In this document: positions 3,801-45,349 of the stretch, piece by piece
Position numbering within the stretch: position 1 is the first letter of the stretch
Layout: the number at the start of each line of letters is the position of its first letter
NCBI GenBank assembly: GCA_964543815.1
Contig: CAZIZG010000004.1
Location: forward strand, 5,438-69,437
DNA: 64,000 nt
Direction: 5' to 3'
DNA from: an uncultured Bdellovibrionales bacterium
Lineage (GTDB): Bacteria > Patescibacteriota > Minisyncoccia > Moranbacterales > UBA1568
The notes under the pieces: generated by a model
The model's input: the letters and a program-made list of their open reading frames with translations, nothing else
The model's database searches: none
What the model was told of the DNA's origin: nothing
Made by a program: the position numbers and the translations under genes

Positions 3801-4316
3801 AATAGCAAAAAGCATTTGATTAGCACTGGAATAACGAAAACCATAGCCAGCAGTGTTCGGGGCGTTCACATTCTTTTTCCCTACAGGAATATTAACCGAA
3901 CTCCCCTGTGATGAATACCCACTCCCTTTCATCCAGAACCCGACCGAAAAATCACCGGAACCGAAATCGAGCGTTCCACCTCCTGGATCACCCATCGTCA
4001 CATAAGCATCAGCATCAGAGCCACCGGGAAAGAAGTTAAGGGCCTGACCAACCTGGCCTTTGACCTTTGCCGGGCCATTAGTGAGTGTCCCGTTGTTCCC
4101 CGAGCCACTTCGATCATAGGCGGTAGTACCAGAAATATCATCTCCGTTAAATGACCAGAGACCAACCAGGCCATTCGTCACCATGTCGTTTTGAGACTGA
4201 TTGAGGGTGCTGCCATACACTTTGAAATACCAATAGGCACCAGCAAAAACGGCCAGTATTAAAACTATTCCAATCCATTGGAACATTCTGGCTTTAGTTG
4301 TTGAGTAGTTTGGCAT
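828..4316 (-). CDS. Giant membrane-anchored secreted protein with four tandem LamG / concanavalin-A-like lectin domains
   Basis: 1162 aa with an N-terminal TM helix (IGIVLILAVFAGAYWYF). Four ~230-aa repeats each end in the LamG signature LDEVRVYNRALSAAEV / LDEGRLYNRALSAAEV / LDEVRTYNRAFSAAEV. The DNA-level repeats are about 80% identical. The gene is flanked on both sides by the ATTACACAGGGT motif. Confidence 0.7.
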   Translation of the reverse strand: MPNYSTTKARMFQWIGIVLILAVFAGAYWYFKVYGSTLNQSQNDMVTNGLVGLWSFNGDDISGTTAYDRSGSGNNGTLTNGPAKVKGQVGQALNFFPGGSDADAYVTMGDPGGGTLDFGSGDFSVGFWMKGSGYSSQGSSVNIPVGKKNVNAPNTAGYGFRYSSANQMLFAIGNGTTDYDLTATLATANDNQWHHYVGLRSGSTTYLYIDGVFNTSMTATSGSVSNSDSFVVGDDTGGQRNVNAAIDEVRVYNTALTAAQIQSLYNLGQSDKTNSSILQPQGTGRLDSGLAGYWKLDENTGTSAADASTNGSNGTLTNGPTWATGQIGSGVTFDGTNDYITISPTAAIKPQANMSISAWVKRDASGEVDYIFWERDASVQEEGLFFYMGTDNKVHCIFRVTGTGFVDITSTTTITDTNWHMVTAVSGAANLMTFYIDGVFAGSGTTTTPNTGLTINSAIMGARNGGGSPDLYGDVTLDEVRFYNRILSADEVAQLYRLTSPTGVDTGLKGYWSFNGQDVSGTTAYDRSGAKNTGTLTNSPTKVTGKVGQALSFDGTDDYVTVADANTLDITGAISMGVWIKTSDTDSCIMSKAIGSSDKCFDLSANKVYEIGILSSAVYFQTSNGTTANVISGSATPLLDNQWHYLMATWDGTTGSNGMKLYLDGTVLYQGTATVSTIQSSSSAFTFGGNGNNWDFSGLLDEGRLYNRALSAAEVKGLYDAGADDKTNSSVSQPQGTGRLDSGLAGYWPLDNGSGTSATDVSTNGNTGTLTNGPTWTTGQIGSAVTFDGTDDHISTAAATVTRFPLTVSAWFKTSNATDSYRTVVNVGNASSGDPLAVLQFTSSVDPCGGGKVKYIVRDDGQFNSASMCSTSSSLNDNTWHHAIGVSSSAGDHKFYIDGVLQASSTTTLGTTTFDRVSVGALRSASQYFPGSVDDVRVYSRGLSSDEISRLYRLTAPTGVDTSLKGYWSFNGQDMSGTTAYDRSGIGNTGTLTNGPTKTIGKISQALSFDGTNDYVDVTNTTYTGEFTYSWWYKTSNNSQTGIMLGGDTTGGIYIKYGLVSGNYFIRVIGGGSSDNTVAPAAVNAWHHMVVTRNSSNKVDLYVDGGSATRLFSDVAQSGNTTIDYIASSADGQYFSGQLDEVRTYNRAFSAAEVAALYNQGR

Positions 4317-17529: not shown

Positions 17530-19278
17530 TCAGGAAAAGGTGAAGGCATACACCGCTACTCCAGGCGATACCAGGAGTTCAAGTGTATGTTCCCCAGAAG
17601 TTCCCTGTATCAATTCATAGAGGCGATCTTCATGAACCGTGACAACTCCCTCTCGCACATCAATACCAGAAATAGCTTTCTCAAGCGGTTTTCCATCCAT
17701 AACTATCTGAACCGTTCCAAGTCCAGTTGCTGGTGGTGCCATCACGAGAAAAACTTTTTTTCCCTGAAATCGAAGTTGTAATCGTGCCTTCTCTCCGGCG
17801 ATGGCTCGTTCTTGCTCCACTAACCACTCACCTCCAAAACCAAAAGTGTCGGACAGAAGCGCCTTTGGTAAGGTAAAGTGCTGTTTGGTACCTATCACCT
17901 GTTCGGATGAAGAAAAACGCTCCATACGTTTTGATCCGAGATATGTTTCCGGTGTTTGTGGTTCAGGGACCAGTCTATCCCCTGAGTGATTATCCGTCAC
18001 ATCCCCCTCTATTTCCTGCCCCGCCTCACCCAGGAGAAGTTGAATTGCTCGCTCCGTTTCCTCATACCCTCCTTCGCCAAAGTGATACTGCCGAACGTTC
18101 CCTGAAGCATCAATCAGATAGTGGGCTGGCCAGTATCGATTATGATAGGCCTGCCATGTTCCGTAGGAATTATCCTGAGCTACCGGATACGTAATCCCGT
18201 ATCGCACGAGGGCATCCGCCACATTGGCTGTTTTCTTCTCAAACTCAAACTCTGGAGTATGGACACCAATAATAACGAGTCCTTTGTCTTGATAGCGCTC
18301 ATACCATTGCGTAAGGTACGGCAGTGTCCGTACGCAATTGATACAGCTGTATGTCCAAAAATCAATGAGGACAACCTTGCCACGAAGTTCCCCAAGTGTG
18401 AGAGGTCGATCGATATTGAGCCAATTCATAATACCCGTAAACTCCGGGGCCATTCCATAGTTCTCTAGTACCGGCATTTGTTTTGATGGCACATCCGGCA
18501 CCTTAAACGGTGACTCTTGTGTCTCTTTCCGAAGGCTATCCAAGGCTTGAGTCACAATGCCATTTGTTTGAAAACGATCTAAAAACGTAATGCCATTTGC
18601 AGAACAAAACTCAGCAAAACGTACCTGAAGTTTCTGATCATAACCCGTATAAATAGCTAGAGCAGAAAATATCGTGAGAACCCCGAAAGCCTGTTGGATT
18701 CTTGTTGTATAGGGAGCAAAAATTCGTGTGCGTCGAAGCACCTGCTGACCAAGCACGGTCAAAATAAAGAGAGGTACCCCCACTCCCGAAACAAAAGCGA
18801 CCGTAACAAGAACCGTTGAGATACTCAGTGCTTGAGTCGCGGCCAACGTGGCTACTGTGGCCAGAATAGGTCCAGCACATGGCGACCAAATGATACCTAG
18901 AGCGAAGCCTGTTATTAACCCTCCCTTAAAGCCCGACTGCTTTCCTAGTATCTCGCCACCGAGATAAGAAAAGCGACTCACGAACGCCTCCAACATGATT
19001 CCTATCCCCGGTACTACCATGGTAACACCGAGTAAGCTTATGACAATAACCGCAAAGAGACGAAGCGTGTCTGGATCGATCGGGACAACACGAAGCAACG
19101 AAGAAAGCGCCAAGGTAAAAAAAGTAAAACTAGTAACAAGGCCCGCGACAATACCAATAGGCCGCCGCTCACCACCAGAAACCCCAACTGAAAGGATAAT
19201 AGGAAGAAGCGGCCAAATACAAGGAGCAAATATAGTTACGACACCAGATAAGAAAGCGAAGAGGATAAGTAGAATCAT
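17530..19278 (-). CDS. DipZ-like fusion: CcdA/DsbD-type transmembrane domain, plus a thioredoxin-like (redoxin) domain, plus a C-terminal beta domain
   Basis: N-terminal 240 aa is multi-TM with paired Cys (FAPCIWP, SPCAGP). Central FWTYSCINCVRTLPYL is a thioredoxin CxxC. Confidence 0.75.
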   Translation of the reverse strand: MILLILFAFLSGVVTIFAPCIWPLLPIILSVGVSGGERRPIGIVAGLVTSFTFFTLALSSLLRVVPIDPDTLRLFAVIVISLLGVTMVVPGIGIMLEAFVSRFSYLGGEILGKQSGFKGGLITGFALGIIWSPCAGPILATVATLAATQALSISTVLVTVAFVSGVGVPLFILTVLGQQVLRRTRIFAPYTTRIQQAFGVLTIFSALAIYTGYDQKLQVRFAEFCSANGITFLDRFQTNGIVTQALDSLRKETQESPFKVPDVPSKQMPVLENYGMAPEFTGIMNWLNIDRPLTLGELRGKVVLIDFWTYSCINCVRTLPYLTQWYERYQDKGLVIIGVHTPEFEFEKKTANVADALVRYGITYPVAQDNSYGTWQAYHNRYWPAHYLIDASGNVRQYHFGEGGYEETERAIQLLLGEAGQEIEGDVTDNHSGDRLVPEPQTPETYLGSKRMERFSSSEQVIGTKQHFTLPKALLSDTFGFGGEWLVEQERAIAGEKARLQLRFQGKKVFLVMAPPATGLGTVQIVMDGKPLEKAISGIDVREGVVTVHEDRLYELIQGTSGEHTLELLVSPGVAVYAFTFS

Positions 19279-19708: not shown

Positions 19709-20197
19709 CTATCTTTGTAAAATCTTTACTGCCAATCTTTTTTCAAGCAAATACAAATACAGCGTAAAAAGTATGAGTCCTTCCTTCAAAATCATCAGGG
19801 GAAACCATCGTTCAGTACCTACTGGATCAAGCACCGCCCAGCCCAATAGAACACAGAGGGTATACATTACTTCCCAGAACCACTGAGGTGAGTTCGCCCT
19901 TTCGAAGGTATAAGCAAAATTAAAAACAAGCAAGGCTCCGTAGGCAAGCAGGAGAAACCACCAAATTTCCTCCGGTATAAACACCTCGGCCTCTTGATAA
20001 GTAACAGCGGCTACCTCATCTATTCGTGGTCCATCAATCTCTGATATCCGAAGGGGTGTTAAGCGAGACAACGATATATCTGAAGAAAAAAAGAAAAGTG
20101 ACGCCCCTTCAATTAAAAGAAGACTCACTAGTAACAAAACGACACGAAAGCGTGTTAATAGGTGTCTACAGGTTTCCATAGGAGTAAGTATGTTCAA
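19709..20197 (-). CDS. Hypothetical membrane protein, co-operonic with the sortase
   Basis: 162 aa with several TM helices. Overlaps the sortase gene by 4 bp. Confidence 0.4.
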   Translation of the reverse strand: MNILTPMETCRHLLTRFRVVLLLVSLLLIEGASLFFFSSDISLSRLTPLRISEIDGPRIDEVAAVTYQEAEVFIPEEIWWFLLLAYGALLVFNFAYTFERANSPQWFWEVMYTLCVLLGWAVLDPVGTERWFPLMILKEGLILFTLYLYLLEKRLAVKILQR

Positions 20198-20913
20198 TAA
20201 TTTTCATTCTGTGCGGCGATAACCAAGAGTCTTTCAAGAGTCGTACCGGCTGGATAGCACGTCATGAGAGTAAGTGTTCTGCTATTCCTATTCCCTGAAA
20301 GATATTCCACTTGCTCGGGCTTCACCCTTTTCTTTTCAATGACATGATACGCTATTCTCTTTTTCTGATAAAAAACAACTATTTCATCCCCCTGTTGCAG
20401 TTTATCAATCAGATAGAAGAGGGCATTGTAACGATTGGCCTGAAATGCATCGATGCCCGAATGAGCAAAGAAAAAAACGTTTCCGAAATCACCAGGGCTG
20501 GCTGTTCCCTTTGCTTGGGCCACCCCTAAAGTAAGCGCTTGTTGATACTCAGATGGGTTGCGCCAATCAACATCTGGAATTACTACTGCATTGGCACCAA
20601 TCTTAGGAATTACTATCCCAAATTCCTCACTGACGGGTATAAGTACCTGGGACGAGTCAAGCTTCCGATCTTGCCGTTCCGTCTCTGTCATAACTTTCTT
20701 CCCTTCCTGTGAAGGAAGCAACTGATACTTTGCTTCTTCTTTCAAGACGGGGAAAAAATGCAAAAAGAGCAGAAAAACAGACACTACCACAAGGGCAATG
20801 CCTGTTTTTTCGATCCAAAAGCCACTGATACATTCACTACTCTGACTGGACATGCTTGTTGTGATAAGCGTGATATCCGATATACCCGACAAGACCGATA
20901 ATAAAAATTCCAA
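20194..20913 (-). CDS. Sortase-family transpeptidase
   Basis: TLMTCYP (TLxTC catalytic Cys motif). N-terminal TM. Overlaps the 3' end of the giant LPXTG ORF. Confidence 0.7.
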   Translation of the reverse strand: MEFLLSVLSGISDITLITTSMSSQSSECISGFWIEKTGIALVVVSVFLLFLHFFPVLKEEAKYQLLPSQEGKKVMTETERQDRKLDSSQVLIPVSEEFGIVIPKIGANAVVIPDVDWRNPSEYQQALTLGVAQAKGTASPGDFGNVFFFAHSGIDAFQANRYNALFYLIDKLQQGDEIVVFYQKKRIAYHVIEKKRVKPEQVEYLSGNRNSRTLTLMTCYPAGTTLERLLVIAAQNENY

Positions 20914-23900
20914 AAAGCAATCGCCACGGACGCGCTTTTAGATTATCCTGCAAACTGTCACCTTCTCCAGGAGTCTCGGTCGTATCACCCAGAACTGATT
21001 TCTGATTCAAGATAGCGTCTTCATTATCCTTTCCAGACTCCTGAACAGTGGCTACTCCTTCCACTTGGCCCTCAATCACAGCTCTGTCCTGAGAAACAGG
21101 GATAGCTCCTGATGATGCAGAGGCCTCCTGAAGCGTCACCGTGGTTGTTTTTTTCTTAATTATCGTATGAGTATCAACATTAACATCTTTATCCCCCACA
21201 AAACCCGAATCATTCCCGTTGACGGCCACTGCTCGCATAGCATAATACGCGTCATTGCTGCACCCCGGAGCAACCTCAACAAAGCCACCGTTTGTATTAG
21301 AACCAATGATTTGCTCATCCACCTTGGTCGCTGCATCAGCAATAAACGTCGTTTCAAAGGAACGATAGAGTTCAACTTTTACTGTCTTGCCACCGTCATC
21401 GGCCGTTGTAAACGTAATAACATTTTGGCAAGAGGCATCACTCCGCTGATAATGAGAGGGGACACCTGGTAACAAAGAGGCCAGTGTCAACGAGACGTGA
21501 TTGCTTTCAGCGGTCTCATTACCAAAACCAGAAGCACGTACCTTTACGTAAAACTCATACAATCCATCAGTAGGCATCACACTACTATCAATCTGACAAT
21601 CACCCGAGTTTCCTCCAAAACTTGATGGCAGCACCATTGAAACAAAAGGTGATACATCGCTATTCTTGTAGCACTCCACGGTGAGAGGCCGTCCCAAAAC
21701 ATCAAGTGTCACGAAACCTATCTTCTGTGTAGCAGAATCCACTACCAATTTTGGAGTTTCAATTTTCACAGAAAGTCCGGCCGCCTGCACTGTATGTGGT
21801 GAAAGTATCACTATCCCCAACAAAATAAGAACTGGTGTCATCATTTTCTTTCGACGCGATACATAGACAAGCATCAACCCAATGACGATGCCTAATACTG
21901 ATAAAAGAGGTGTATTGATACTCGCTCCCGTCATTGGTAATATCGTCGTTGCCCCAAGTACGTATTGTGTCTTTTTCTGTGTTTTTTCTACCTGCTTGTT
22001 TTCGTTATCCTCCGGTATCACTACTATCTGCTTATTCGGAAGAACAACGTTGACCTCTGTCCCAACAAAGGGGTCAGCCACGCTATTTGCTAGGATTGTC
22101 TCGGTATCAGCACTCCCCCTCGCAAAAGCCAAATCCCGATAGAGGCCAGCGTCTTGAGCATCACTAATCTTTGTTTTGTAAGTAAGAGTCTTTGTTTCAC
22201 CAGCAACCATATCACCCAAATCCCAAATTCCTGGCGAAGCATACTCATGGAGGAACGGTGCCCCTTCACCACTGCCTGGTACATAGACAAATCCCTCCGG
22301 TGGCAGATCTGTTACCGTCACATTGTCTACTGCTCCCTCCAAGGCTGTCACCTCAAGGGTATACGCCACTTCATTACCAGGAACCTCATCCCCAATACTA
22401 TTATTGAACTTACGGAGCTGCAGTCGTGGTACCCGCTCCTTCTCTCTTTTGACATTCCAGGCCACACAATAATACGTTGATGCATTTTCCGAGGCATCCA
22501 TGAAGTCATAGTTATCATAATTCACTACGTCTTTATGACAGTAGAATTCAGCAGAGACATCATCGCTATTGGGATCTTCCGAATTTTTACCGTAGGTAAA
22601 CGGGATATACTGATCACTCCAAATCTCCCGGACCCAAAGAAGCGGCGAACTCTTCAGATCAACATCAACACTCGCTTCACCACTCACACCAGTAGGTCCA
22701 AAGGTATGCCAGTCAGGACTGGCTGACTCACCGGTGTTATCACCAGGATTATCATTACTATAGTAAGCCCACTGAAATCGCCAATCCTCCTCAAAGCGGC
22801 ATCCTTCATGAGTATTTACCCAATCAGTAGCCGTTATTGCTGTCATATCCGGACCACCCAAGCCGTAGTTAGGTAAATCACTCTCGCTCTCACAAACAAT
22901 CTTGGTAGCTACAATGTGAGCAACCTGCTGATTCTTAAAAGTACACGTTACGGTTTCACCTGGGTTCAAATCAATGGCATTAGGCTTACTTCCATCACTA
23001 CAAAAAGCGCTTTCGAGCCTCCAGCCAGTCATCGGTAATTCCGTCACCGAGTACGTACCGGAGGTAAGGCTCCCCCTACTGTATTCTTCACCATCAGTCA
23101 GGGAAAATCCTCCTTCAGAGAAGTTCGTGCTAAAAGAAAATATCTGGTCACTCCCTGCCGGATCTGTTTGCTTTTTAACTATAATCTTCGCAGGCTTTTC
23201 AACATTCCACGCCACACAGTAATACGTTCCACCAGCAACCGGCCGATCAATCCAGTCCCAATTATCATAATTCACCACGTCTTTATGACAGTAGAATTCG
23301 GCCGTGACATTATCATTATTCGGTTCTTCCGGATTCTTACCATAAGTAAACGGGATGTAGTTTTCATCCCAGACTTCACGTAACCAGACTGGTCGCGTTG
23401 CATCACCCTCGAAACCAGCCAATGGCACAATGGTAGTACCACTGAAGACATGCCAATCGCCACTAGTCACACCCGTATTATCTCCAGGATTGGGTACGCC
23501 ATCATAACTCCACTCAAATTGCCAATCACGCTTTATATGGCAACCAGGGTGGGTCGCCACCCATAAACTCGCTGTTACTGCTGTCATATCCGGACCACCC
23601 AAGCCGTAGTTAGGTAAATCACTCTCGCTCTCACAAACAATCTTGGTAGCTACAATTTCAATCGGAGCATCATCATTGGTTATAACACAATAAGCATCAC
23701 CACCAGCCTGAAGCTGGCCTTCACAGCCCTTACTATAACTGGTTTCATATCCAAGAGCTGGCTCCTCTGTCACTCCGTACGATCCTGGCAATAAGACAAG
23801 ATCGCTAGTACCATCACTATCAAAAGCTGCAGCCTCTCCCTCATTCAACACATAAGAAAAGTCTTCTGGACGACCAGTGCCGCCATCATCATTTATCACT

Positions 23901-26110
23901 ACTTTAGTAATATGAAGCGTTCCTGGATTTGCAACAAGATGACAATCTTGAGAACAGGAGTATTGTCCACCCTCTACTCCCCCGTCACACTCCTCACTCT
24001 CTTGGTTCACCATATTATCCCCACAGTAAGGATCAGCTACTATTTTTGTATTGGTATAAGTACAAGTAATATTTTCTCCTGGCATTAGAGTAATATCCGC
24101 TGTAGCATTCGCTGGCATATCAAGAGAAACATTCGATGCAACACAGTTCATGTCCGAAAGTTCCCAGCCAGAAACCGCATTTTCCGTAAAGGAATACTGT
24201 CCCGGCAAGAGTGAGGAGAAACTTACGGTATTAGAAAGTCCATTTTCATTATCACCATCATCATCAAGCACAAAACTACTTATTTCAGTTCCTGTTGTTG
24301 TGAAAGAAAAATCCTGTACATCATTAGGTACGGCATTTTTCACAATAGTAATCGAGCCTCTCTTTACAGCATTACTGAAGGTGCAAACCGTAGCGCTATC
24401 AGCCACTACCCGTACCAAAGCCCCCGCTCCCTCTGGCAATAGAGTACAATTCGCCCCAGAAACCTCGGCGATGCTATACGATGCCAGACCAATTTCTGTG
24501 ATAGTGTGCTGCCCAGTCGGAACCGCACCAAAGTCTACTAACCCATTCGTATCAGCTGTAATAGGCGCATTGTTATCCAGCTGAAAACTCCATGCTGAGA
24601 GTGAGGAACCATCATCAACTATTTTCACTACTTTTAAACTTCCTGTCGCCACGCAGTTGTTATTCCACACAGCCTGACCGCCCGCATCCCAATTTTGACC
24701 AGGATAGTGAGTCTCCCCTACCACAAAGGCCGGGATAATATCCGCGCTATGCTCGGTAGCATGAGCACTACCCATCACTGAATCATCATCTACCTGTATC
24801 GATTCATAACCATTGGCAGCAGTATCCGGCGGAGTAGCATGACAAATAGTAATCGGCACGTGTTGTACCACCGGAGTAGCCACTACCTCAAAGGCATCAG
24901 AGAAAGTAGTAGGCCCGGTACAGCCAGAGGTACCGTATTCTTTCAGCTCCGCTGCCCAATGGGTAGAAACCGTGGCACTTCCTGGTAGAACATAAGTGGC
25001 TGAATATGTTGTCACTCCATCGCCTGGATTGAAACAACTGCTATTAGGAATAGAAAATGAGCTTCCTACTGGAGGATTAATAAAAATTTTATAAAACTTA
25101 CTATCATTGAGACCAGTCGCCTTTACGTAGACTGTATCTCCTGGCATATAGCTACTTTTATCAACAGAAAATGCCACATCGCCATACGTAGCCACAAACA
25201 AGGTAAAGTGATCCAGGTTTACACTTACCGCTGTATCATTTTTCTCTATATATCTATCAGAAACAGTGGCTGCGTGTTCAATATCAGTGGCATCTTCAGT
25301 ATATTTTACTCGAACATCCTTTTTTTCGCCTTTTGGAATAGGGAGAGTAAGCGTATAGGCAAACGTCCCATTCTCCATAGAAGAAGTGACTTCATAGGCC
25401 GTATGAGAAAACGCTCCAAGGAGAGCCACTTGTTCATCCGACAGTGTCACTGTTTCAATAGAGAGGGTTCCTGAATCATCTGGCAACTTAGTAAAAACTA
25501 CCGTTACTCCGTCATTTTGCGGAGCTACATACTTTTCATTGAGAATAACCTTATGCCTTGTTGTGGCTTTTTTTCCGTTCTGTTCCCAGATGGAGATGGA
25601 ATCGTCCTTCATTTTTATTGAGGGCCCCTCCTGTTCTGTTGTTTCAACCACACTCTCAGTTTTTGTGGCTGAAAAATCCGTCAGGGGCACTGGTTCGGCT
25701 GAGACCTGGTCAGTCTCATTCGATACTGACTCCTCTCCCGCCTCTTCAGCCAACTCTCCTCCCAACACTAAAGCAGCTGACGCCATTCCATCGGAATCAT
25801 TTAGCGAAGGCTCTGAAGTAACCACTTCGGTAGCGGAATGTTCGTCATTCTTTTTTATCTCTGTTTCTTTCTCAGTTTCATTTTTTTCAGAATCCAATTC
25901 TGTTCCTTGCTTGTCATCTGAAACTGCCATTACCTCTGATACTACCTCTTCATCAGCCGCCACCGCCACACTCTTACTCAAGGAAAAAGTTCCTGAAACA
26001 CCTGCCACACTTATCGGTTGTAACACCAGGGCGAATATTACCCCTAAATTTAATCCCCTCTCCAAAAGAACGCGTGCTCCTCGTTTCATACCTTTTCGGA
26101 ATATCCGCAT
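20837..26110 (-). CDS. Giant cell-surface protein with an internal canonical LPXTG sorting signal and a tandem-duplicated ~247-aa domain
   Basis: 1757 aa with an N-terminal signal/TM. At about nt 21850-21950 it reads LPMTGAS + hydrophobic stretch + SRRKK. This is followed in frame by MMTPVLILLGIVILSPHTVQAAG (signal-peptide-like), a ~330-aa domain and a C-terminal TM. Confidence 0.7.
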   Translation of the reverse strand: MRIFRKGMKRGARVLLERGLNLGVIFALVLQPISVAGVSGTFSLSKSVAVAADEEVVSEVMAVSDDKQGTELDSEKNETEKETEIKKNDEHSATEVVTSEPSLNDSDGMASAALVLGGELAEEAGEESVSNETDQVSAEPVPLTDFSATKTESVVETTEQEGPSIKMKDDSISIWEQNGKKATTRHKVILNEKYVAPQNDGVTVVFTKLPDDSGTLSIETVTLSDEQVALLGAFSHTAYEVTSSMENGTFAYTLTLPIPKGEKKDVRVKYTEDATDIEHAATVSDRYIEKNDTAVSVNLDHFTLFVATYGDVAFSVDKSSYMPGDTVYVKATGLNDSKFYKIFINPPVGSSFSIPNSSCFNPGDGVTTYSATYVLPGSATVSTHWAAELKEYGTSGCTGPTTFSDAFEVVATPVVQHVPITICHATPPDTAANGYESIQVDDDSVMGSAHATEHSADIIPAFVVGETHYPGQNWDAGGQAVWNNNCVATGSLKVVKIVDDGSSLSAWSFQLDNNAPITADTNGLVDFGAVPTGQHTITEIGLASYSIAEVSGANCTLLPEGAGALVRVVADSATVCTFSNAVKRGSITIVKNAVPNDVQDFSFTTTGTEISSFVLDDDGDNENGLSNTVSFSSLLPGQYSFTENAVSGWELSDMNCVASNVSLDMPANATADITLMPGENITCTYTNTKIVADPYCGDNMVNQESEECDGGVEGGQYSCSQDCHLVANPGTLHITKVVINDDGGTGRPEDFSYVLNEGEAAAFDSDGTSDLVLLPGSYGVTEEPALGYETSYSKGCEGQLQAGGDAYCVITNDDAPIEIVATKIVCESESDLPNYGLGGPDMTAVTASLWVATHPGCHIKRDWQFEWSYDGVPNPGDNTGVTSGDWHVFSGTTIVPLAGFEGDATRPVWLREVWDENYIPFTYGKNPEEPNNDNVTAEFYCHKDVVNYDNWDWIDRPVAGGTYYCVAWNVEKPAKIIVKKQTDPAGSDQIFSFSTNFSEGGFSLTDGEEYSRGSLTSGTYSVTELPMTGWRLESAFCSDGSKPNAIDLNPGETVTCTFKNQQVAHIVATKIVCESESDLPNYGLGGPDMTAITATDWVNTHEGCRFEEDWRFQWAYYSNDNPGDNTGESASPDWHTFGPTGVSGEASVDVDLKSSPLLWVREIWSDQYIPFTYGKNSEDPNSDDVSAEFYCHKDVVNYDNYDFMDASENASTYYCVAWNVKREKERVPRLQLRKFNNSIGDEVPGNEVAYTLEVTALEGAVDNVTVTDLPPEGFVYVPGSGEGAPFLHEYASPGIWDLGDMVAGETKTLTYKTKISDAQDAGLYRDLAFARGSADTETILANSVADPFVGTEVNVVLPNKQIVVIPEDNENKQVEKTQKKTQYVLGATTILPMTGASINTPLLSVLGIVIGLMLVYVSRRKKMMTPVLILLGIVILSPHTVQAAGLSVKIETPKLVVDSATQKIGFVTLDVLGRPLTVECYKNSDVSPFVSMVLPSSFGGNSGDCQIDSSVMPTDGLYEFYVKVRASGFGNETAESNHVSLTLASLLPGVPSHYQRSDASCQNVITFTTADDGGKTVKVELYRSFETTFIADAATKVDEQIIGSNTNGGFVEVAPGCSNDAYYAMRAVAVNGNDSGFVGDKDVNVDTHTIIKKKTTTVTLQEASASSGAIPVSQDRAVIEGQVEGVATVQESGKDNEDAILNQKSVLGDTTETPGEGDSLQDNLKARPWRLLFGIFIIGLVGYIGYHAYHNKHVQSE
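22180..23660. repeat. Tandem duplication (2 x ~741 bp) inside the giant surface-protein gene
   Basis: A 74-bp identical block occurs at 22842-22915 and 23583-23656. The protein repeats begin HIVATKIVCESESDLPNYGLGGPDMTA. Confidence 0.7.
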
Positions 26111-36862: not shown

Positions 36863-39748
36863 CTAGTCATTCCGACGCCGAAAACTGCCCGGTAGAGTTG
36901 CCTGCTCTGGCAACAAGACAAAAAGAATATTAGCTGTAAACAGAATGAGGATAACGGCCAATACTATCCGGAAAGAAAACATAACAGAAGCGGGGATATA
37001 GGAGGCGATAGCAGCCAGGTATTTCTTCATTCCTGGCAGTGTTCCTTGGGCAAATCCAGATTCTTTCAACTCTACTTGGATAGTGGCTGAAAAGTGAATT
37101 TCCGGAGAATCCAACTGGGAAATACTCCATATGTCACTGAGGGCTTTCCGGGTCTCTTGTGGTTGCGATACCGACGCCTGGAGGGCAATATTATAGACAT
37201 CCGGAGCTGTCTTGAGTGCTGAAAAAGAAATAGCTCCGCCGGGAACGCTTCCTGATTCAGCTACGATAGAGCCATCAACTGTCCATTGTCGTACTGATGC
37301 GTCTTTAAGGAAATCAGGCATGAACGCGCTCTGAAAAGAAAAGGTTTCACCGGAATACCCTTGAAAAACGGTATCGCTATATTCTGGACATACTCCCTGT
37401 GGACAATTCGTTGGATCAGCTCCACCGATATCCTTATATTGTCCCAGAAGCTTAGCCCACGCATTAGCATCACGTGACTTTATTGAAAGCTCTGGCTTCA
37501 CCACATGAAAACTCCGGGACAGCGTAACAATCTTATCTGACTTTGTAGCCGACGATAAATCATTCGCCGTAAGCGTCACTGTATAGGTATCTCCCACATC
37601 CCCGGTCACCGGAAAGAAATTGACTCCGTTTGGCTTATCATCCTCACAGTCAGGCGAAACAGCGGCCTTAGTACAAGTAAGTGGCTTTCCATTTATCGTC
37701 CACTTGAAATCACTCAGTCCCGTCGGATCAACAGAAAGACCAATAATCTCATTCTTAATCACCCGACAAGAAGACTTATCGAGATTATTCGGATCAGTTG
37801 GATCAGTAGCGTTACCCTGACAAATCTTCCCCGTTGGCGACTTATCATAAATAACCCGCATGAGGGATCCTACCGGTACTGCCTGTACTTTATAAGCAGT
37901 AATCTTCTGTTTGGTAGAAGTAAATTTCACAATGACATCACTCTTCCCTTTACGGACAACTCCCGAAGAAAAGCTCTCAGTAGCCGAGGCTGTAAATTTC
38001 ATGTACCCTACTCCTCCTGTGAGATAGCTCGAAAGCTGCTTACCGCCAAAGGTTTTAGTCGGATCGTTTGGCATATCCAGCTTTACTCGCAGTGTATCAA
38101 GCGCAATCCCCTTCGTTCCACCCACCAGATTTTTTGATTTCAAATCGCTCGTAACGCTCTTGGCGATAAGCGACCCACCGTCATCAATAAATTGAGGATT
38201 ATTACTGAGTTTCACATCCCAATCAAACAGGATATCACTCAAGCTACGTGAGGCATTAGAGAGACTGGCTTGAGCGGCGATAGTATCACCTGATTCATCC
38301 GTTGATTCATCGTTATTCGGATTATCAGGCGTAGCCGAAACACTCACATCCAAATTTGTTGCCTGCCCACCCTGAGTCGGATCAACCAGATTACGCTCGA
38401 TACATTTATTAAGATCCATCTGAGCAGTCAGGATATTCACATCATATCCCTTGATCTTTTTCGTTACGGCACCAGTGCTCTTAGCGAGCGAAATTGGACA
38501 GTCATTTTTAGAAAACGCCCACATAATCATCGACGATGAATCATCATACTTGGTATTAATCATGGAGGTTCCCTCAATAACCACTCCCACCTGATCGCCA
38601 ACGCCGTAGTTCCAGGTCAGATTATTCTGTCCCAATCCGACGACATTGGCTTCATCTTTATTGCCATTATCAGCCGTGTCAGGATCCTTGGGATTCGTAC
38701 CCCACTTTTCTTCTTCACCCTGATTAAAAGTTCCGTCACCCGTTGTAAATCCGGATGCATTCGGAAAAAGATGCCGACACGCCAGCGTCTGAGTGGAAGC
38801 CCCAGAGCACACGGTCAGTGCTGTACCACACGTGGTATTACTGGTTGGATCTGCCAAGCAACGCGGCTCTCCAACGTAACATTTTGGACCAGTGGAAGAA
38901 CACGTAGGAAGACCAGACACACGACAAACCGTTGAGTTTACAAAATCAAAAGGAGCGGTTGAAGTGGTAGTGCTGGTTTCAGTAGAATCACCAGTTACCG
39001 GATCAGTATTACCTGTAGTAGTGGTGGTGCTCGTCTGATCGTTTGGATCAATCGTCACGTCACCTTCAAGACATACCGGTTCAGTTCCAGAAGGACAAGT
39101 AAAATCTGTGGTATCAGCACTCCCGTCAAGCAACTCATAGTTCTTCCCAGACGCGGGATCGTTGACGTAGCAATGATCCGGAGCGCCTGTTTTATTATCA
39201 CCACCAAAACGCGCTTTATATCCGTCATCATCCGCATCTGTCGCATACGAGACCCCTGTTTTATCAAAACCGTTTTGAGCCAAAATCGTCATGGCCTCAA
39301 TTTTCCAATCTTCAATGGTAATTTTTGAATCATTATCTCGGTCACACAAAGATCGTACTGTAGCACTCGGAGAACTACTCAATCCACACTGGGCATGCTT
39401 GATATACCAGGTGTAGTACAATTGGTTTTCCTTATTGGAAAAATACATAGGAAAAGCTTTGGCTGAAAGTTTTTCCCCAGGCTTTGGATCACTGGGACTA
39501 AAAAAAAGTGTCACCTGAGGTGTTGGCCGCTTGTTATCAGCCACATTGAGACTTTCCCCCTGATTCTGAATACTCCCTGTATCCATATGGTAACGTTTTT
39601 CCATATCAGAAAACATCGACGTGGCCGAAGGAAGCTTAGGGCCACTAAACAGACCAGCACTGACTGGGAGGATATTTCCGACAAAAAGCTGTGTTATTAA
39701 CACGACACTTGAGAAACGAACTATATTTTTTCGAAAAGAAACACTCAT
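36863..39748 (-). CDS. Large secreted protein with a Thr-rich linker and a C-terminal TM anchor; begins the co-directional T4SS-like cluster
   Basis: 961 aa. N-terminal signal peptide, Thr/Ser-rich low-complexity stretch, C-terminal hydrophobic helix. Confidence 0.5.
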   Translation of the reverse strand: MSVSFRKNIVRFSSVVLITQLFVGNILPVSAGLFSGPKLPSATSMFSDMEKRYHMDTGSIQNQGESLNVADNKRPTPQVTLFFSPSDPKPGEKLSAKAFPMYFSNKENQLYYTWYIKHAQCGLSSSPSATVRSLCDRDNDSKITIEDWKIEAMTILAQNGFDKTGVSYATDADDDGYKARFGGDNKTGAPDHCYVNDPASGKNYELLDGSADTTDFTCPSGTEPVCLEGDVTIDPNDQTSTTTTTGNTDPVTGDSTETSTTTSTAPFDFVNSTVCRVSGLPTCSSTGPKCYVGEPRCLADPTSNTTCGTALTVCSGASTQTLACRHLFPNASGFTTGDGTFNQGEEEKWGTNPKDPDTADNGNKDEANVVGLGQNNLTWNYGVGDQVGVVIEGTSMINTKYDDSSSMIMWAFSKNDCPISLAKSTGAVTKKIKGYDVNILTAQMDLNKCIERNLVDPTQGGQATNLDVSVSATPDNPNNDESTDESGDTIAAQASLSNASRSLSDILFDWDVKLSNNPQFIDDGGSLIAKSVTSDLKSKNLVGGTKGIALDTLRVKLDMPNDPTKTFGGKQLSSYLTGGVGYMKFTASATESFSSGVVRKGKSDVIVKFTSTKQKITAYKVQAVPVGSLMRVIYDKSPTGKICQGNATDPTDPNNLDKSSCRVIKNEIIGLSVDPTGLSDFKWTINGKPLTCTKAAVSPDCEDDKPNGVNFFPVTGDVGDTYTVTLTANDLSSATKSDKIVTLSRSFHVVKPELSIKSRDANAWAKLLGQYKDIGGADPTNCPQGVCPEYSDTVFQGYSGETFSFQSAFMPDFLKDASVRQWTVDGSIVAESGSVPGGAISFSALKTAPDVYNIALQASVSQPQETRKALSDIWSISQLDSPEIHFSATIQVELKESGFAQGTLPGMKKYLAAIASYIPASVMFSFRIVLAVILILFTANILFVLLPEQATLPGSFRRRND

Positions 39749-39758
39749 ACAAATAAAA

Positions 39759-40412
39759 TCAATGTAATACGAGACGAAACATATCTATAAGAAAGTAAAA
39801 AAACCAACTCGCCCCCCAAGCGTACCACAACGATCCCGAATAATACACTATGAGACCCGAAAAAAGAGAGAATATGAGAGCGGGCACTCGCTGCCAAGAG
39901 AGATCATCAGCCAAAAAGAGAAGTCCAACGAAAAGGAATGCCTGAATAAAAACAGCAACCAATCCAAAGGAACTTAGCCACAGACGCTGCACGAGTCCTC
40001 GAAAAAAGACTTCATACAACAAAGCCATAAAAGGAACAAGGAGCGCTTCATACAAGAGAAACCACAAAAAATTTGACTGGATGGTATACGAAAGCGTATA
40101 GCCGGTACCAAAACTCGTGTATCGGTCCAGTGCAAAAATGATAGCCAGCGCTACTGATACCGAGATGATACTAAAAAACATGCCAGGAAATATCCTTCCC
40201 GTTTGCCAGCCAATATTTTTTAAAGGTTCCTTCAGTATTATTTTACAATATAACATTGGAACTACCAAGAAGAAGGTAAGACTCACCAAAAAAGTCTGAA
40301 ACACCGGATTCACCTTATCACTTTGACTAAAAAGACCAAGGAAGAGAACCGTAAATACTACCAAGAGTCCGGTAATAAGAAAACGTTTATCAAGCGATAT
40401 TCTCTCATTCAT
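39759..40412 (-). CDS. CPBP-family (CAAX-protease-like) intramembrane protein
   Basis: Multi-TM. LLYEVFFRG resembles the EExxxR motif. Low certainty. Confidence 0.4.
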   Translation of the reverse strand: MNERISLDKRFLITGLLVVFTVLFLGLFSQSDKVNPVFQTFLVSLTFFLVVPMLYCKIILKEPLKNIGWQTGRIFPGMFFSIISVSVALAIIFALDRYTSFGTGYTLSYTIQSNFLWFLLYEALLVPFMALLYEVFFRGLVQRLWLSSFGLVAVFIQAFLFVGLLFLADDLSWQRVPALIFSLFSGLIVYYSGSLWYAWGASWFFYFLIDMFRLVLH

Positions 40413-40416
40413 AGTT

Positions 40417-40980
40417 TTAGGCTACTTTCTCTGCGGGTGTATTAGAGTATTGAGCATCATTAACAGCTTCTGCTGCCTCCTCAGCCATCATAGCCTGCTG
40501 TGCCATCTGAGCCTGAAAACGATAGGCTTCGGCCTGCCGATTGGCATTATCTTTCTTTTGCTCTTCCCAGAGACGCTTCTGTTCTTTCTTTGCCGCTGAC
40601 TTCGCCATAACATAGAGCGCAATAACAGTCAGGGTTTCTATTGGGAGAAAATTCAGACCAAATCCAATAGCTTCCAAAAGAGAAAGAAAGAGGAGCACCA
40701 GGCTGCGAGCAATCTGATTATTCTGCTTCCCTCCAGATTTATCAAACATCGTCATGAGAATCCAGATAAGAAAACTGAAGCACAGCGTTATGACCGTTCC
40801 TATTCCTGGTAACGAACCCACTCCTACCAAATCAAGTAGATCTTTAAGGAGCGCAACTAATGCCAGCCCTAAATACAGCATAAAAGAAGGCTTCACAGCG
40901 GTAAAGCTTGCTGTTTTGCCACTGGTTGCCTTGTTGTAGGCACTCACGAGCATTCGTGCCTGTGGTGGGAGTACCGCCAT
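40417..40980 (-). CDS. Hypothetical membrane protein (3-4 TMs plus C-terminal coiled coil) in the T4SS-like cluster
   Basis: 187 aa. Hydropathy pattern only. Confidence 0.4.
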   Translation of the reverse strand: MAVLPPQARMLVSAYNKATSGKTASFTAVKPSFMLYLGLALVALLKDLLDLVGVGSLPGIGTVITLCFSFLIWILMTMFDKSGGKQNNQIARSLVLLFLSLLEAIGFGLNFLPIETLTVIALYVMAKSAAKKEQKRLWEEQKKDNANRQAEAYRFQAQMAQQAMMAEEAAEAVNDAQYSNTPAEKVA

Positions 40981-40997
40981 ACCAATACCCTACTAGT

Positions 40998-43187
40998 TTA
41001 GTTGCCCGAATCAAAATCTTTCTTTGCTTCTTCAATTTCCAATAACTGACGTGGATCCGAGGTAATAATCTGATCTTCACTATAGGAAGCAATGACTTTG
41101 ATAGCGGCATGCTTTGTCCCGGCAAAGAAAATCCCTTCACCGACATTGCTTTCCAAAAGAAGAAACTTCTCATGATCGGTCAGAAAAAATGTCTCCGCTA
41201 CCAAATCGATAGACGAGGGCGATTGACGAAGAAGCAATTGAAGCGACGAGTTGGTAATAATTGGCTTCCCATAGCGTGAAGACATAAAATCCCCAATATC
41301 CTGAGTAATAGTCGTCAGCCCAGTAAAGTACTTACGGCAGCGTTTAGCAATACCAAAAAGGAAAGCGGCAGCGTCTTCATGTTGCATCATTACCCAGGCC
41401 TCATCCACCACAATCACCCGTTTCTTCATATGGGTACGAATCTCATTCCAAATGAACTGAAGAATAATGTACATAGCGATTGGGCGCAATTCTTCTTCCA
41501 GATCACGAATGTTAAATACTACTAACTGATTCTCCATCTCAATGTTGGTTTGTTTATCAAGAAATCCCCCAAAAATACCCTCCGTGTAACGTTCCAGGCG
41601 AGCTGAGAGCGATTCCGCACCATCCATATTCTGTAAAACAGCGTACAAATCTGACATGGTCGGAAAAGAAGTACTCGTCAATTGAGAAAAATCACTAACA
41701 CCCGTAATATCCCGAATAGCATACGTTTCACGTATAGCCCGATCCAATATAGAATCTTCTTCCGGAGTAACTGATCCGAGCATGAGATGAAGCAAACCAA
41801 TCAGGTTGGCAATGGTGTTACGAAACAATCCTTCTGTATCCTCATCTTCCACTTGTTTAGGCAAATCAAAAGGATTCAAATGTACATTAGAATTGAGTGA
41901 CACCTTGAGAAAGGTGCCGCCGACGGCCTCACAGAGGTGTTTATATTCATTTTCAGGATCGAGAATGATAACACTCGAATTAAACATCATGGCCCGCAGG
42001 ACCTCAAGTTTGACGGTATAACTCTTACCAGCACCAGACTTAGCAAACACTACCATGTTGGCATTCTCCATTTTGAATCGATCAAAAAGAATCAAGCTGT
42101 TATTGTGCCGATTGATGCCGTAGAGCACCCCTTGATTAGATGACAGATCAGAAGAAACAAACGGGAAAGTGGTCGACAACGGCTCAGTGTTCAAGTTATT
42201 CCCGACGTCAAGCACGTCCATAGCAAGCGGCCGAGTCGCTGCAAATCCCTGATCCATCCGAAGGATAGCAGCTTTTGTATACACAAGCTGCGCTTCAAGA
42301 ATAGATTCAATTGACCGACACTTATCATTCAAATCGGCATCATCTTTGCCATATACCGTCATGTAAAGACCAGCCCGGAAAAATTTTTCCGTTCCTTGCT
42401 GCAGTTTGTCCCGCAAACTTTCAATGTCAGTAAGAGCAGTTTCAAGCATGGGATCGCGGATTTTACCGTCCTCTGTTTCAATATGGATTTGTGACTGTAC
42501 CTGCGTCGCCGACTTACGTAAATTCTTCATTATCTCCGCCGTATCAATCGGATGGATAAAAAGGGCAATATCCATGCTGAAATCAATGTTGATAATCGGC
42601 GAAAACCAGTTCGTCGAGAGATACCGGGGATACGCAACCACAAAATAGGTCCGAGCCAGTACCCCGCCAATACGCATACTATTGGAATTGACCTGAATAG
42701 CCGGAGGAGCAATAAGATCACGCAGGGTGGCGATGCCCTGACGATACAGAGCTTCAGCCTCCTTGGTATTTTCGTTCCGACCAGAAAGAGTCAGGCCGGC
42801 TGATGACTGTGGCACAGCCTGCGGTGGCATTAGCACGGATACCTCAGACACGATTGGCTCCGACGTAACATCTACTACTGGCTCTTCCGTTACTATTGGT
42901 TTCGGAATCACGGGCTCATCCGCTCCACTCCGGAAAGTCTCCTCTTGATGAGCTGGAAGCGAAGTTTCATCTTTTTCCCCCTCCTCCTTGGACACTGGTG
43001 CCATCGAAACCGTTTCCGCTCCAAAGGTAATAGGTGGCTGAGTTATCTCTTCCTTCTTCTCTGCTTCTAAAACAACCACGGGCTGTTCTTCCTTGATTTC
43101 TTCAGGGGGAAGTGGCGTAGAGATAATGACCGGTGACTGCCCATTCAGGAGTGGTCCTTTGTTGTCTCGAAATACGATGCGATCCAT
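40998..43187 (-). CDS. VirB4/TrbE-family T4SS ATPase (ATPase domains), with an N-terminal Pro/Glu-rich low-complexity region
   Basis: Walker A FAKSGAGKSYTVK, DPENEY, Walker B VIVVDEAWVM. Confidence 0.85.
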   Translation of the reverse strand: MDRIVFRDNKGPLLNGQSPVIISTPLPPEEIKEEQPVVVLEAEKKEEITQPPITFGAETVSMAPVSKEEGEKDETSLPAHQEETFRSGADEPVIPKPIVTEEPVVDVTSEPIVSEVSVLMPPQAVPQSSAGLTLSGRNENTKEAEALYRQGIATLRDLIAPPAIQVNSNSMRIGGVLARTYFVVAYPRYLSTNWFSPIINIDFSMDIALFIHPIDTAEIMKNLRKSATQVQSQIHIETEDGKIRDPMLETALTDIESLRDKLQQGTEKFFRAGLYMTVYGKDDADLNDKCRSIESILEAQLVYTKAAILRMDQGFAATRPLAMDVLDVGNNLNTEPLSTTFPFVSSDLSSNQGVLYGINRHNNSLILFDRFKMENANMVVFAKSGAGKSYTVKLEVLRAMMFNSSVIILDPENEYKHLCEAVGGTFLKVSLNSNVHLNPFDLPKQVEDEDTEGLFRNTIANLIGLLHLMLGSVTPEEDSILDRAIRETYAIRDITGVSDFSQLTSTSFPTMSDLYAVLQNMDGAESLSARLERYTEGIFGGFLDKQTNIEMENQLVVFNIRDLEEELRPIAMYIILQFIWNEIRTHMKKRVIVVDEAWVMMQHEDAAAFLFGIAKRCRKYFTGLTTITQDIGDFMSSRYGKPIITNSSLQLLLRQSPSSIDLVAETFFLTDHEKFLLLESNVGEGIFFAGTKHAAIKVIASYSEDQIITSDPRQLLEIEEAKKDFDSGN

Positions 43188-43197
43188 GATGCTGTAA

Positions 43198-43878
43198 TTA
43201 GGCGAGTTCTATTTTGCTCACGTCTTTCATTACCGTCGAGGTAAAGAGCGACGGGTTGTAGCTATTATAAAGCAATTCGATAATTTCCTCTGTATTAAGT
43301 TGGGTCACCTTGACTCCAGCTCCCGACATAGCTGCCGCAATATGATCCACCCGTTGGAGTAATTGGCTTTTGTAAGTTTCAAATAACCCACTCTTCATGG
43401 AACTCGCTTGTTTAGGACGGAATATACCGAGTAGCTTATCGAGTAGTCCACTCGCTTGATCTTCCACGGGTGAAAATGGCACTACAATATAAAAATACTT
43501 CGACATGATATTGGAAACCTCACTCAAATTCTTGATGAAATTCTTGTACTCACTAATCTGAAACCGGAGAAGTTCATTCATCTGCTGCTTTTCTTCCTCT
43601 GCGAGCAACTCGACGTAAGGACCGATATTGAAACGCCTTGATTGAATGACAATTTGAACTGGAAAATCAAGCGAATTAAGAAAAGCTTGATACTGAGCAA
43701 TAATAGCATCCTGCTCCTGACTTGATTTGAGGTCGAAATTAATAGAGGAAACCAAAAGTACAGCCCGGAGCGCTCCACTTTTAAGCACCATCACGCCGTC
43801 ACGCATCTCCTCCACATCAACATACTTTTGGGTACTTGATGCACTCACTCCCGGCTTTTTAGCTTTCAATAATTCCAT
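43198..43878 (-). CDS. Stand-alone VirB4 N-terminal-domain-like protein (CagE/TrbE/VirB N-domain pattern)
   Basis: DGVMVLKSGALRAVLLVSSINFDLKSSQEQDAIIAQYQAFLNSLDFPVQIVIQSRR matches the VirB4 N-domain pattern. Sits 11 bp upstream of the ATPase ORF, in a different frame. Confidence 0.5.
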   Translation of the reverse strand: MELLKAKKPGVSASSTQKYVDVEEMRDGVMVLKSGALRAVLLVSSINFDLKSSQEQDAIIAQYQAFLNSLDFPVQIVIQSRRFNIGPYVELLAEEEKQQMNELLRFQISEYKNFIKNLSEVSNIMSKYFYIVVPFSPVEDQASGLLDKLLGIFRPKQASSMKSGLFETYKSQLLQRVDHIAAAMSGAGVKVTQLNTEEIIELLYNSYNPSLFTSTVMKDVSKIELA

Positions 43879-43910
43879 AGATTCACGCTACTGAAGTTAC
43901 CACCTTCCTT

Positions 43911-44309: not shown

Positions 44310-44312
44310 ACA

Positions 44313-45341: not shown

Positions 45342-45349
45342 AATAACAG

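Follow-up and report, generated by a model that had tools for sequence, protein, structure and literature searches.

A conserved gene fusion in Patescibacteria places a sortase sorting signal inside an open reading frame and may encode a polyprotein processed by sortase and signal peptidase

The sorting signals recognised by sortases are defined, and searched for, as C-terminal elements, in which an LPXTG-type motif and a hydrophobic segment are followed by a basic tail that ends the protein. Sortases may be encoded in operons dedicated to their substrates, such as the class C pilus loci and the class GN 'marine' systems with a single target. A sortase family is also enriched in the Candidate Phyla Radiation (CPR) (Méheust et al. 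2019, PMC6744442). A different way of dividing exported proteins is found in the structural polyproteins of Flaviviridae and alphaviruses, where a stop-transfer helix is followed by an internal signal that is cut by host signal peptidase (PMC11721386). Here we describe a locus with features of both, in a stretch of 64,000 nucleotides (nt) from an uncultured member of the Patescibacteriota (GTDB order Moranbacterales, family UBA1568; GenBank assembly GCA_964543815.1, contig CAZIZG010000004.1, positions 5,438 to 69,437), hereafter the window, to which all coordinates refer unless a different contig is named. On its minus strand, a sortase gene overlaps the end of an open reading frame (ORF) of 1757 amino acids (aa) that contains a complete sorting signal far from its C-terminus. 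From sequence conservation we infer that this ORF is likely to be an evolutionarily stable gene fusion making a secreted polyprotein, which would be resolved by the sortase together with signal peptidase. No prior description of the arrangement came up in literature searches on sorting signals at internal positions, polyproteins involving sortase, CPR sortases and internal signal peptides of bacteria, subscription journals being outside their coverage.

The features on which this proposal depends are as follows.

20840..26110, minus strand: coding sequence of the predicted 1757-aa polyprotein, from the ORF list and translation, with its TAG stop codon at 20837-20839
20197..20853, minus strand: sortase of 219 aa with an N-terminal membrane segment (PF04203, 76.4 bits; H131, C199 within TLMTC, R208)
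21926..21961, minus strand: extended sortase recognition motif VLGATTILPMTG, in which LPMTG is aa 1391-1395 and the predicted cut lies between T1394 and G1395
21857..21925, minus strand: first transmembrane segment (TM1), the stop-transfer segment of the sorting signal, aa 1396-1418 (23 residues), from hydrophobicity and a helix in the AlphaFold2 (AF2) model
21845..21856, minus strand: RRKK, the predicted cytoplasmic basic loop of a hairpin, aa 1419-1422, from the loop charge in homologues
21782..21844, minus strand: second transmembrane segment (TM2), the putative internal signal peptide MMTPVLILLGIVILSPHTVQA, aa 1423-1443, with a predicted signal-peptidase cut after A1443

An initial annotation of the sequence had reported a sortase overlapping a 1757-aa ORF, a complete sorting signal in the middle of that ORF and, directly behind it, what appeared to be a new signal peptide leading a domain with its own C-terminal membrane segment. 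Each of these elements was recovered: the sortase ORF (20194..20913, minus strand) matches PF04203 at 76 bits, the large ORF (20837..26110, minus strand) translates to 1757 aa, and LPMTG (1391-1395), a hydrophobic segment (1396-1418) and RRKK (1419-1422) are followed by exactly 335 further residues. The sequence VLGATTI-LPMTG stands immediately before TM1, and the predicted sortase site is spanned by peptide forms VLGATTILPMTGAS and VLGATTILPMTGASI. NCBIfam model TIGR01167 (LPXTG_anchor) scores 19.7 bits on aa 1391-1422 against a curated cut-off of 15.9, while PF00746 is above cut-off on the internal sorting signal of a homologue (P0016). The V, L, G, A, L, P, T and G of the extended motif are invariant across 37 aligned homologues, the most distant at 34% identity. 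Because TIGR01167 is above its cut-off, and because VLGA and LPxTG are invariant among these homologues, we take the internal sorting signal to be more than a chance match.

In its parts, therefore, the signal resembles a canonical LPXTG signal (TIGR01167/PF00746), with LPMTG, a hydrophobic segment of ∼23 aa, a basic cluster and a score above cut-off. The resemblance extends to the setting, as a sortase with the catalytic His, Cys (TLxTC) and Arg adjoins the substrate gene and the cargo is a fibrillar adhesin with an isopeptide-type stalk. Unlike a canonical signal, it does not lie at the extreme C-terminus: the 335 residues after RRKK are in frame, and what would be the basic tail is instead the predicted cytoplasmic loop of a hairpin. 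Further differences are that the host is a Patescibacterium and not a classical Gram-positive bacterium, and that the sortase falls outside classes A-F/GN. No stop codon follows RRKK, where the DNA reads CGT CGA AAG AAA ATG ATG with the Met-Met codons beginning at 21844. A non-terminal sorting signal of this kind is likewise present in 46 of 70 related loci from species-representative genomes.

The segment that follows (MMTPVLILLGIVILSPHTVQA|AG) does have the make-up of a signal peptide, with RRKK as n-region, MMTPVLILLGIVIL as h-region and SPHTVQA|A as c-region (aa 1419-1443); here and below, signal peptides and topology were judged by inspection and a hydrophobicity scan. In the window and in 46 of the 70 relatives this segment is internal, and only in relatives with split genes does it stand at the N-terminus of a polypeptide. 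TM2 aligns with the N-terminal signal peptides of free-standing homologues. The column of A1443 (position -1) holds Ala in 120 of 135 fused members compared with 47 of 57 free-standing ones, and A/V/T/S/G occupies position -3 in 126 of 135 and 49 of 57, respectively. By these counts the (A/V)-x-A motif is as conserved in fused as in free-standing forms, and TM2 therefore appears to be constrained just as a true N-terminal signal peptide is. The ATG ATG with which TM2 begins is a relic of the start of a once separate gene, and no Shine-Dalgarno (SD) sequence was found upstream of it in the window.

On either side of this junction lie the two exported parts of the ORF.

25955..26110, minus strand: N-terminal Sec-type signal peptide region, aa 1-∼52, from hydrophobicity scan and inspection
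22421..25954, minus strand: variable adhesin stalk, with SpaA-type prealbumin-like domains at aa ∼490-690 (Pfam SpaA_4, SpaA_2 and SpaA)
22076..22420, minus strand: CLIPPER/DUF11 (PF01345) CnaA-like stalk domain, with the Pfam DUF11 match at aa 1244-1343
21116..21775, minus strand: globular part of the C-terminal module, aa 1446-1665, predicted as two beta-sandwich domains of FN3/immunoglobulin-like (Ig-like) type (AF2 predicted local distance difference test, pLDDT, of 90)
20927..21115, minus strand: low-complexity linker, aa 1666-1728 (AF2 pLDDT <50), with conserved GAIPV and VLG motifs
20840..20926, minus strand: third transmembrane segment (TM3), aa ∼1729-1749, and a short cytoplasmic tail, from hydrophobicity and an AF2 helix

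From this layout we propose a route of export and processing. The N-terminal signal peptide would start Sec export of the ∼1340-aa adhesin until TM1, the helix of the sorting signal, stopped transfer and crossed the membrane from outside to inside. RRKK would then remain in the cytoplasm, in line with the positive-inside rule, and TM2, the former signal peptide, would re-insert from inside to outside and restart export of the Ig-like module, which TM3 would anchor in the membrane. At LPMT|G the protein would be cut by the neighbouring sortase, which would link the adhesin to an envelope acceptor, assumed to be lipid II/peptidoglycan, and signal peptidase I would cut after V-Q-A1443 (VQA|AGLSV). 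The predicted products are an anchored adhesin, a 49-aa hairpin remnant (G1395-A1443) and a 314-aa membrane-anchored protein (A1444-E1757). Fusion would leave topology and processing unchanged, because a sorting signal followed by a signal peptide already constitutes a valid hairpin, and it would therefore be tolerated and recurrent. It would cost the cell nothing and would ensure 1:1 synthesis of the adhesin and its Ig-like partner. An AF2 model of aa 1231-1757 agrees with a picture of beads joined by cleavable signals, which it does not prove: the CLIPPER and Ig-like domains are confident and TM1 and TM3 are helices, while the LPXTG region, TM2 and the linker have low confidence.

The likeness of this scheme to viral polyproteins is an analogy of mechanism and not sequence or structural homology. 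As in those proteins, a single ORF encodes two exported ectodomains separated by a two-helix hairpin, whose second helix is the signal peptide of the next domain and carries a small-x-small signal-peptidase site on the outside. It differs in its bacterial host, in yielding only two products and in its first cut, which is proposed to be sortase transpeptidation and not proteolysis.

Since the initial annotation had raised the possibility of a missed stop codon or sequencing error, and suggested orthologues as one means of settling it, the junction was compared across relatives. A separately assembled contig (L001) is 100% identical to the window over 7610 nt (7.6 kb), and an identical 1757-aa protein is called on it; as it probably derives from the same population, this is weak evidence. 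Full-length orthologues in three species-representative genomes (L008-L010) are also fused: each gave one tblastn alignment, at 62-64% identity, that extends from aa ∼135-178 to 1756 and crosses the junction, where they read SRRRALVPV... or ARRRVMMPV.... Orthologues thus do not consistently encode two separate genes. Searching with a junction-spanning query (aa 1231-1757) retrieved 39 proteins at 33-66% identity that cover 72-100% of the query, at least 95% of it in 35 cases, and all of which have an internal L[PA]xTG. The 40 fused proteins examined share a common junction pattern consisting of L[PA]xTG, a TM1 of 19-23 aa, a basic loop (3-17 aa, net charge +3 to +7), and a second hydrophobic segment that ends in small-x-small (AxA) and is followed by conserved LSVKIETPE.

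A wider survey used a profile of the C-terminal module (alignment A2), which was built from aa 1423-1757 of the window protein and six free-standing homologues of ∼320 aa. It matched 742 clusters (50% identity), of which 491 had E <1e-30, and this Ig-like membrane partner is therefore a large family without prior description. The 191 members that were retrieved comprise 134 proteins of ∼410-3050 aa with the module at their extreme C-terminus and 57 that are free-standing or N-terminally cut. L[PA]xTG lies at most 70 aa upstream of the module in 128 of the 134 fused proteins, with MPxTG or FPxTG in four of the remaining six. At the DNA level the profile identified 70 loci in species-representative genomes, with an in-frame fusion in 46 and none in 24. 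A sortase gene on the same strand lies within -37 to +101 nt of the module stop codon in 68 of these loci, and the other two are at contig ends. Every locus with an informative organism name belongs to Patescibacteria (Moran-, Gottesman-, Shapiro-, Levy-, Roizman-, Woese- and Chisholmbacteria, Saccharimonadales and Parcubacteria). Many related metagenome-assembled genome (MAG) records (L007-L011, L013, L014 and others; CAY*/CAZ*) bear the titles Bdellovibrionales, Gammaproteobacteria or Pseudomonadales. These names are probably wrong, since the loci in question group with named Moranbacteria and Microgenomates and share synteny with the window. No rRNA was found in the window, and its taxonomic placement was based on named relatives and synteny. 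A neighbour-joining (NJ) tree of the module placed at least nine changes between fused and split states, with the whole Moranbacteria-like clade that holds the window in the fused state.

This breadth bears directly on the idea that two separate genes only seem to be joined in the window, through a sequencing or assembly error (a one-base indel in an A-run, or a stop codon that was lost). In its favour, the junction is a single A-deletion away from RRKK-TGA with an overlapping ATG, a textbook form of the split arrangement that is known from relatives. The closest orthologues (L007-L010) are fused with different junctions, three of them without a Met before TM2, the Moranbacteria-like clade is fused throughout, and the SD sequence typical of true split loci is missing from the window; the identical contig L001 adds little, given its probable origin. 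Different projects and assemblers produced the fused loci, which leaves no credible case for an artefact common to all. We therefore rejected a sequencing error as the source of the missing stop codon, and an artefact confined to the window is extremely unlikely.

The same counts speak to whether the protein is processed at all. The LPMTG could be a fossil in an unprocessed three-pass membrane protein, with both ectodomains held by the TM1-TM2 hairpin and TM3. Such a topology would be viable without cleavage, the cleavages are predicted and the AF2 model sets no constraint. A fossil should decay, yet the L, P, T and G of the motif and the preceding VLGA are invariant in the 37 homologues, the motif is kept by 128 of 134 fused members, the gene immediately downstream encodes a sortase in 68 of 70 loci, and the (A/V)-x-A site is conserved as it is in free-standing signal peptides. 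An unprocessed protein is, on this evidence, highly improbable.

Comparison with the split loci indicated how the fusion could have arisen. The conserved unit in Patescibacteria consists of an LPxTG adhesin ending in CLIPPER, a ∼320-aa membrane protein with two Ig-like domains and a sortase. In split loci (for example L005, L036 and L040) the components, their order, the CLIPPER-VLGA-LPxTG end of the adhesin and the downstream sortase are the same as in the window, and the Ig-like protein likewise has a signal peptide, a linker and a membrane anchor. A canonical sorting signal closes the upstream gene in all 19 readable split loci, as in LPATG-AQTFWLYVALALVTGGLTFGGLGWFL-RRKYA*, and the downstream ATG overlaps its end by exactly 8 nt in 17 of these 19. 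A representative junction reads ...CGG AGG AAA TAT GCG TAA, and the overlap follows the pattern xAT Gyz TAA, with the ATG inside Tyr/His/Asn-Ala/Glu/Val codons and the stop codon falling within codons two and three of the following gene. In these loci (L036, L040, L041, L053 and others), about 30 nt ahead of the Ig-like gene start, the Arg-Arg codons of the sorting signal (CGG AGG) are at the same time the GGAGG SD sequence of the Ig-like gene, an unusually compact case of one sequence encoding both a protein-sorting feature and a translation signal. A variant split arrangement with a 1-nt spacer is found in L005/L006.

Whereas the split loci have a stop codon after RRKYA, an 8-nt ATG overlap and GGAGG, the window has been merged by a one-base change of frame. 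The downstream frame of split loci is +1 relative to the upstream frame, and the loss of one base therefore fuses the two genes into ...RRK(K)-M..., as in the RRKK-MM of the window. The suggestion that two genes had been fused thus stands in an evolutionary sense, since relatives carry them as two overlapping genes, and fails in the sense of a missing-stop artefact. The suggestion of a bona fide polyprotein is supported insofar as the LPxTG motif, basic loop and signal-peptidase motif have been kept and the internal ribosome-binding site has been lost; the cleavage itself is a prediction. An SD sequence of at least five bases precedes an in-frame start in 3 of 47 fused loci versus 14 of 24 split loci, there is none in the window, and 23 of 40 fused proteins lack a Met at the junction (loop or TM2 start). 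These comparisons point to loss of the internal ribosome-binding site from the fused loci. Two further readings of the junction were considered and dismissed. Programmed frameshifting or slippage has no change of frame to bridge, and the A-run is 4 nt long without an X XXY YYZ heptamer. An alternative genetic code would find no in-frame stop codon to reassign at the junction, and the TGA of split locus L005 is out of frame with its downstream gene.

The loss of initiation signals also weighs on the possibility that the locus comprises nested in-frame genes, in which the C-terminal module is made also or mainly from an internal start at the ATG ATG (aa 1423) and the fusion is leaky read-through with little effect. 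The two in-frame ATGs lie exactly where the signal-peptide-like segment begins, and a relic '...LMK' precedes TM2 in several homologues. No SD-like motif is found upstream of the window ATGs, such motifs are scarce in fused loci as counted above, and the majority of the fused proteins compared have no Met from which to start. In addition, ribosomes translating the adhesin meet no stop codon and must read through regardless. Nested genes are thus a decidedly unlikely account of the locus.

Several observations count against a processed polyprotein. Both cleavages are predictions from sequence conservation, and AF2 renders TM2 as a short helix of low confidence. The sortase fits no curated class, its best score being 66.4 against a cut-off of 160 for class C. 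With one A fewer in the AAAA run at 21845-21848, the window would read RRKK-TGA overlapping an ATG, the split arrangement, so that its own fused state rests on the length of one homopolymer; an error in this A4 run is unlikely because of the fused orthologues. The relic ATG ATG has been kept in the window, and some internal initiation could therefore occur. Finally, the count of independent fusions is indicative, as it comes from an NJ tree without support values.

If the proposal of a processed polyprotein is correct, the locus would provide a natural bacterial polyprotein resolved by two envelope enzymes. The locus is also a very clean case of overlapping, translationally coupled genes becoming fused through a single-base change with function kept. 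More generally, the family shows that a complete sorting signal can function, or at the least stay strictly conserved, hundreds of residues from the C-terminus as one half of a hairpin. Because the signal can be internal, annotation pipelines that require a C-terminal position will miss or mislabel such proteins.

The C-terminal module is matched by no Pfam or NCBIfam family. TM3 (aa ∼1729-1749) is found in fused and free-standing homologues alike, and conservation over 192 members shows four near-invariant Cys residues (98-100%), which together with the Ig-like folds fits an exported, disulfide-bonded, extracytoplasmic module. Foldseek searches against the PDB returned tandem FN3 pairs (best E 8e-7), with Caf1M-type chaperones at similarly weak TM-scores. 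A function could not be assigned to the module from known families, since the Pfam and NCBIfam searches were empty and the structural matches are generic tandem FN3/Ig pairs. The obligatory 1:1 coupling suggests that the Ig-like partner is stoichiometric with the adhesin or the sortase and is not a catalyst. In the linker (20927-21115) and in homologues, a (S/G)VLG(D/E)xT motif resembles the VLGAxT that precedes the adhesin LPxTG, and could represent either a sorting signal that has degenerated or a docking element for the sortase. A gene for a DsbD-thioredoxin protein lies near the locus (17530-19278).

This coupling raises the question of the acceptor. After both cuts, the sortase could join Thr1394 to the Ig-like partner, through its N-terminal amine or a side chain, instead of to peptidoglycan. 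The cleavages would be those proposed above and only the acceptor would differ, the product being a covalent, membrane-anchored two-part fibre. The hairpin would be excised and its flanks rejoined outside the cell, an extracellular, enzymatic form of 'protein splicing', and in split loci the two products would be joined. Ligation would explain the constant adjacency and 1:1 production of the two parts, whether by 8-nt overlap or by fusion, as well as the partner's combination of a long linker and a membrane anchor. It would also suit the predicted mature N-terminus of the partner, a small residue followed by a conserved strand (A, N/S/D/T/G, LSVRIExPK). That predicted N-terminal residue varies (A/S/G/V/T), and no Lys of the partner is invariant over the 192 members, the maximum being 77% at K1575. 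Moreover, the same linear product could be had without a sortase if the hairpin were just deleted, yet the hairpin is always kept. Ligation is therefore an unlikely outcome, which if true would represent a new use of sortase and account for the obligatory 1:1 coupling.

The sortase gene overlaps the large ORF by 17 nt when counted from its likely ATG (20853), or by 77 nt if the longest ORF is used; the 219-aa start is also the one called on L001. Membership of the sortase family is clear from PF04203 (76.4 bits against 26.6), TIGR01076 (50.7 against 39.35) and the catalytic His, Cys and Arg, and TLMTCYPAG..ERLLV aligns with PDB 6ixz. The nearest solved structures are class C/D-like. None of the models for classes A-F/GN (NCBIfam NF0337xx, TIGR03784) reached its cut-off, with scores below that of class C for class E (45.5 against 160), D (35.2 against 165), F (20.8 against 166) and GN (25.4 against 158).

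In having its sortase beside a presumed substrate, the window resembles dedicated sortase-substrate operons, and the affinity of the sortase to class C/D, both in its nearest curated model and in solved structures, recalls the class C pilus loci in particular. It differs from pilus loci in that the sortase is far below every class cut-off and in that a conserved membrane partner, sometimes fused to the substrate, lies between substrate and sortase. In addition, no pilin motif or second pilin was identified, the adhesin part not having been searched for pilin motifs. No other LPxTG protein was found among the large ORFs of the window.

A further gene directly 3' of the sortase completes the locus.

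19709..20179, minus strand: multi-pass membrane protein of 156 aa, also called on L001

This protein has no Pfam or NCBIfam match, but homologues at 26-58% identity occupy the same position in 15 loci of the Moranbacteria clade, where it may be a fourth component specific to that clade. In its linkage to a sortase gene the 156-aa protein recalls other small membrane proteins, for example SafA of Actinobacteria (PMC9282373).

Patescibacteria are thought to live attached to hosts. Because this lifestyle is thought likely, and sortase is among the enriched functions, the locus is a good candidate for an attachment apparatus of Patescibacteria. Consistent with the N-terminal signals of sortase substrates, the adhesin begins with a Sec signal peptide (MRIFRKGMKRGARVLLERGLNLGVIFALVLQPISVAG...AVA|AD), identified by inspection, with a basic n-region, a hydrophobic segment at aa 19-42 and an approximate cleavage site. 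The length of its stalk ranges from about 330 to >2700 aa across the family. In fibrillar adhesins, CLIPPER serves as a CnaA-like isopeptide stalk domain (PMC12617251). This domain, for which AF2 gave a confident beta-domain, is the first part of the module conserved family-wide, and homology to all fused and split relatives starts from about aa 1200.

The stalk also holds a tandem duplication (aa 820-1066 and 1067-∼1318; 22157-23653). The initial annotation described it as an exactly duplicated 741-bp domain, but this proved wrong: the copies start 741 nt apart, at aa 820 and 1067, and have diverged. Their global identity is ∼62% for nucleotides and 47% for protein, the latter much greater within the initial ∼155 aa, and they match exactly over 75 nt at most; a repeat finder reported 78-81% identity over blocks of 141-152 nt. 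Each copy begins with a Cys-containing domain of ∼155 aa, VATKIVCESESDLPNYGLGGPDMTA...YYCVAWNV (22913-23653, aa 820-∼975; and 22157-22912, aa 1067-∼1222), which has no Pfam match and stands ahead of a SpaA_4-like domain. LPMTG occurs once more, at aa 1025; with no hydrophobic tail and a position within a SpaA-like globular domain, this occurrence was ascribed to chance.

Gene neighbourhoods differ among the loci. BipA is encoded upstream of the polyprotein gene in the window. On three other contigs (997-5998 of L002 and 417-5997 of L003/L004), the fused genes, for homologues of ∼700 aa, have ahead of them genes for one or two Peptidase_M73 (camelysin/TasA-like) proteins, a ∼200-aa S24/S26 signal-peptidase-like protein that might be SipW-like and a ∼720-aa LTD-domain protein. 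This looks like a TasA/SipW-type fibre cluster beside the sortase unit, and it is absent from the window. The upstream LTD-domain proteins were considered as further sortase substrates and discounted, as they have no LPxTG.

Elsewhere in the window, a run of seven genes (36863-47452, minus strand) is probably a type IV secretion or conjugation-like cluster. It encodes a 729-aa P-loop ATPase of VirB4/TraC/TraG type (40998-43187), an Rce1-like CAAX protease (39759-40412) and several large proteins without a family match. A 1162-aa protein (828-4316, minus strand) with five Laminin_G_3 (concanavalin-like lectin) repeats and no LPxTG is another putative large surface or adhesion protein.

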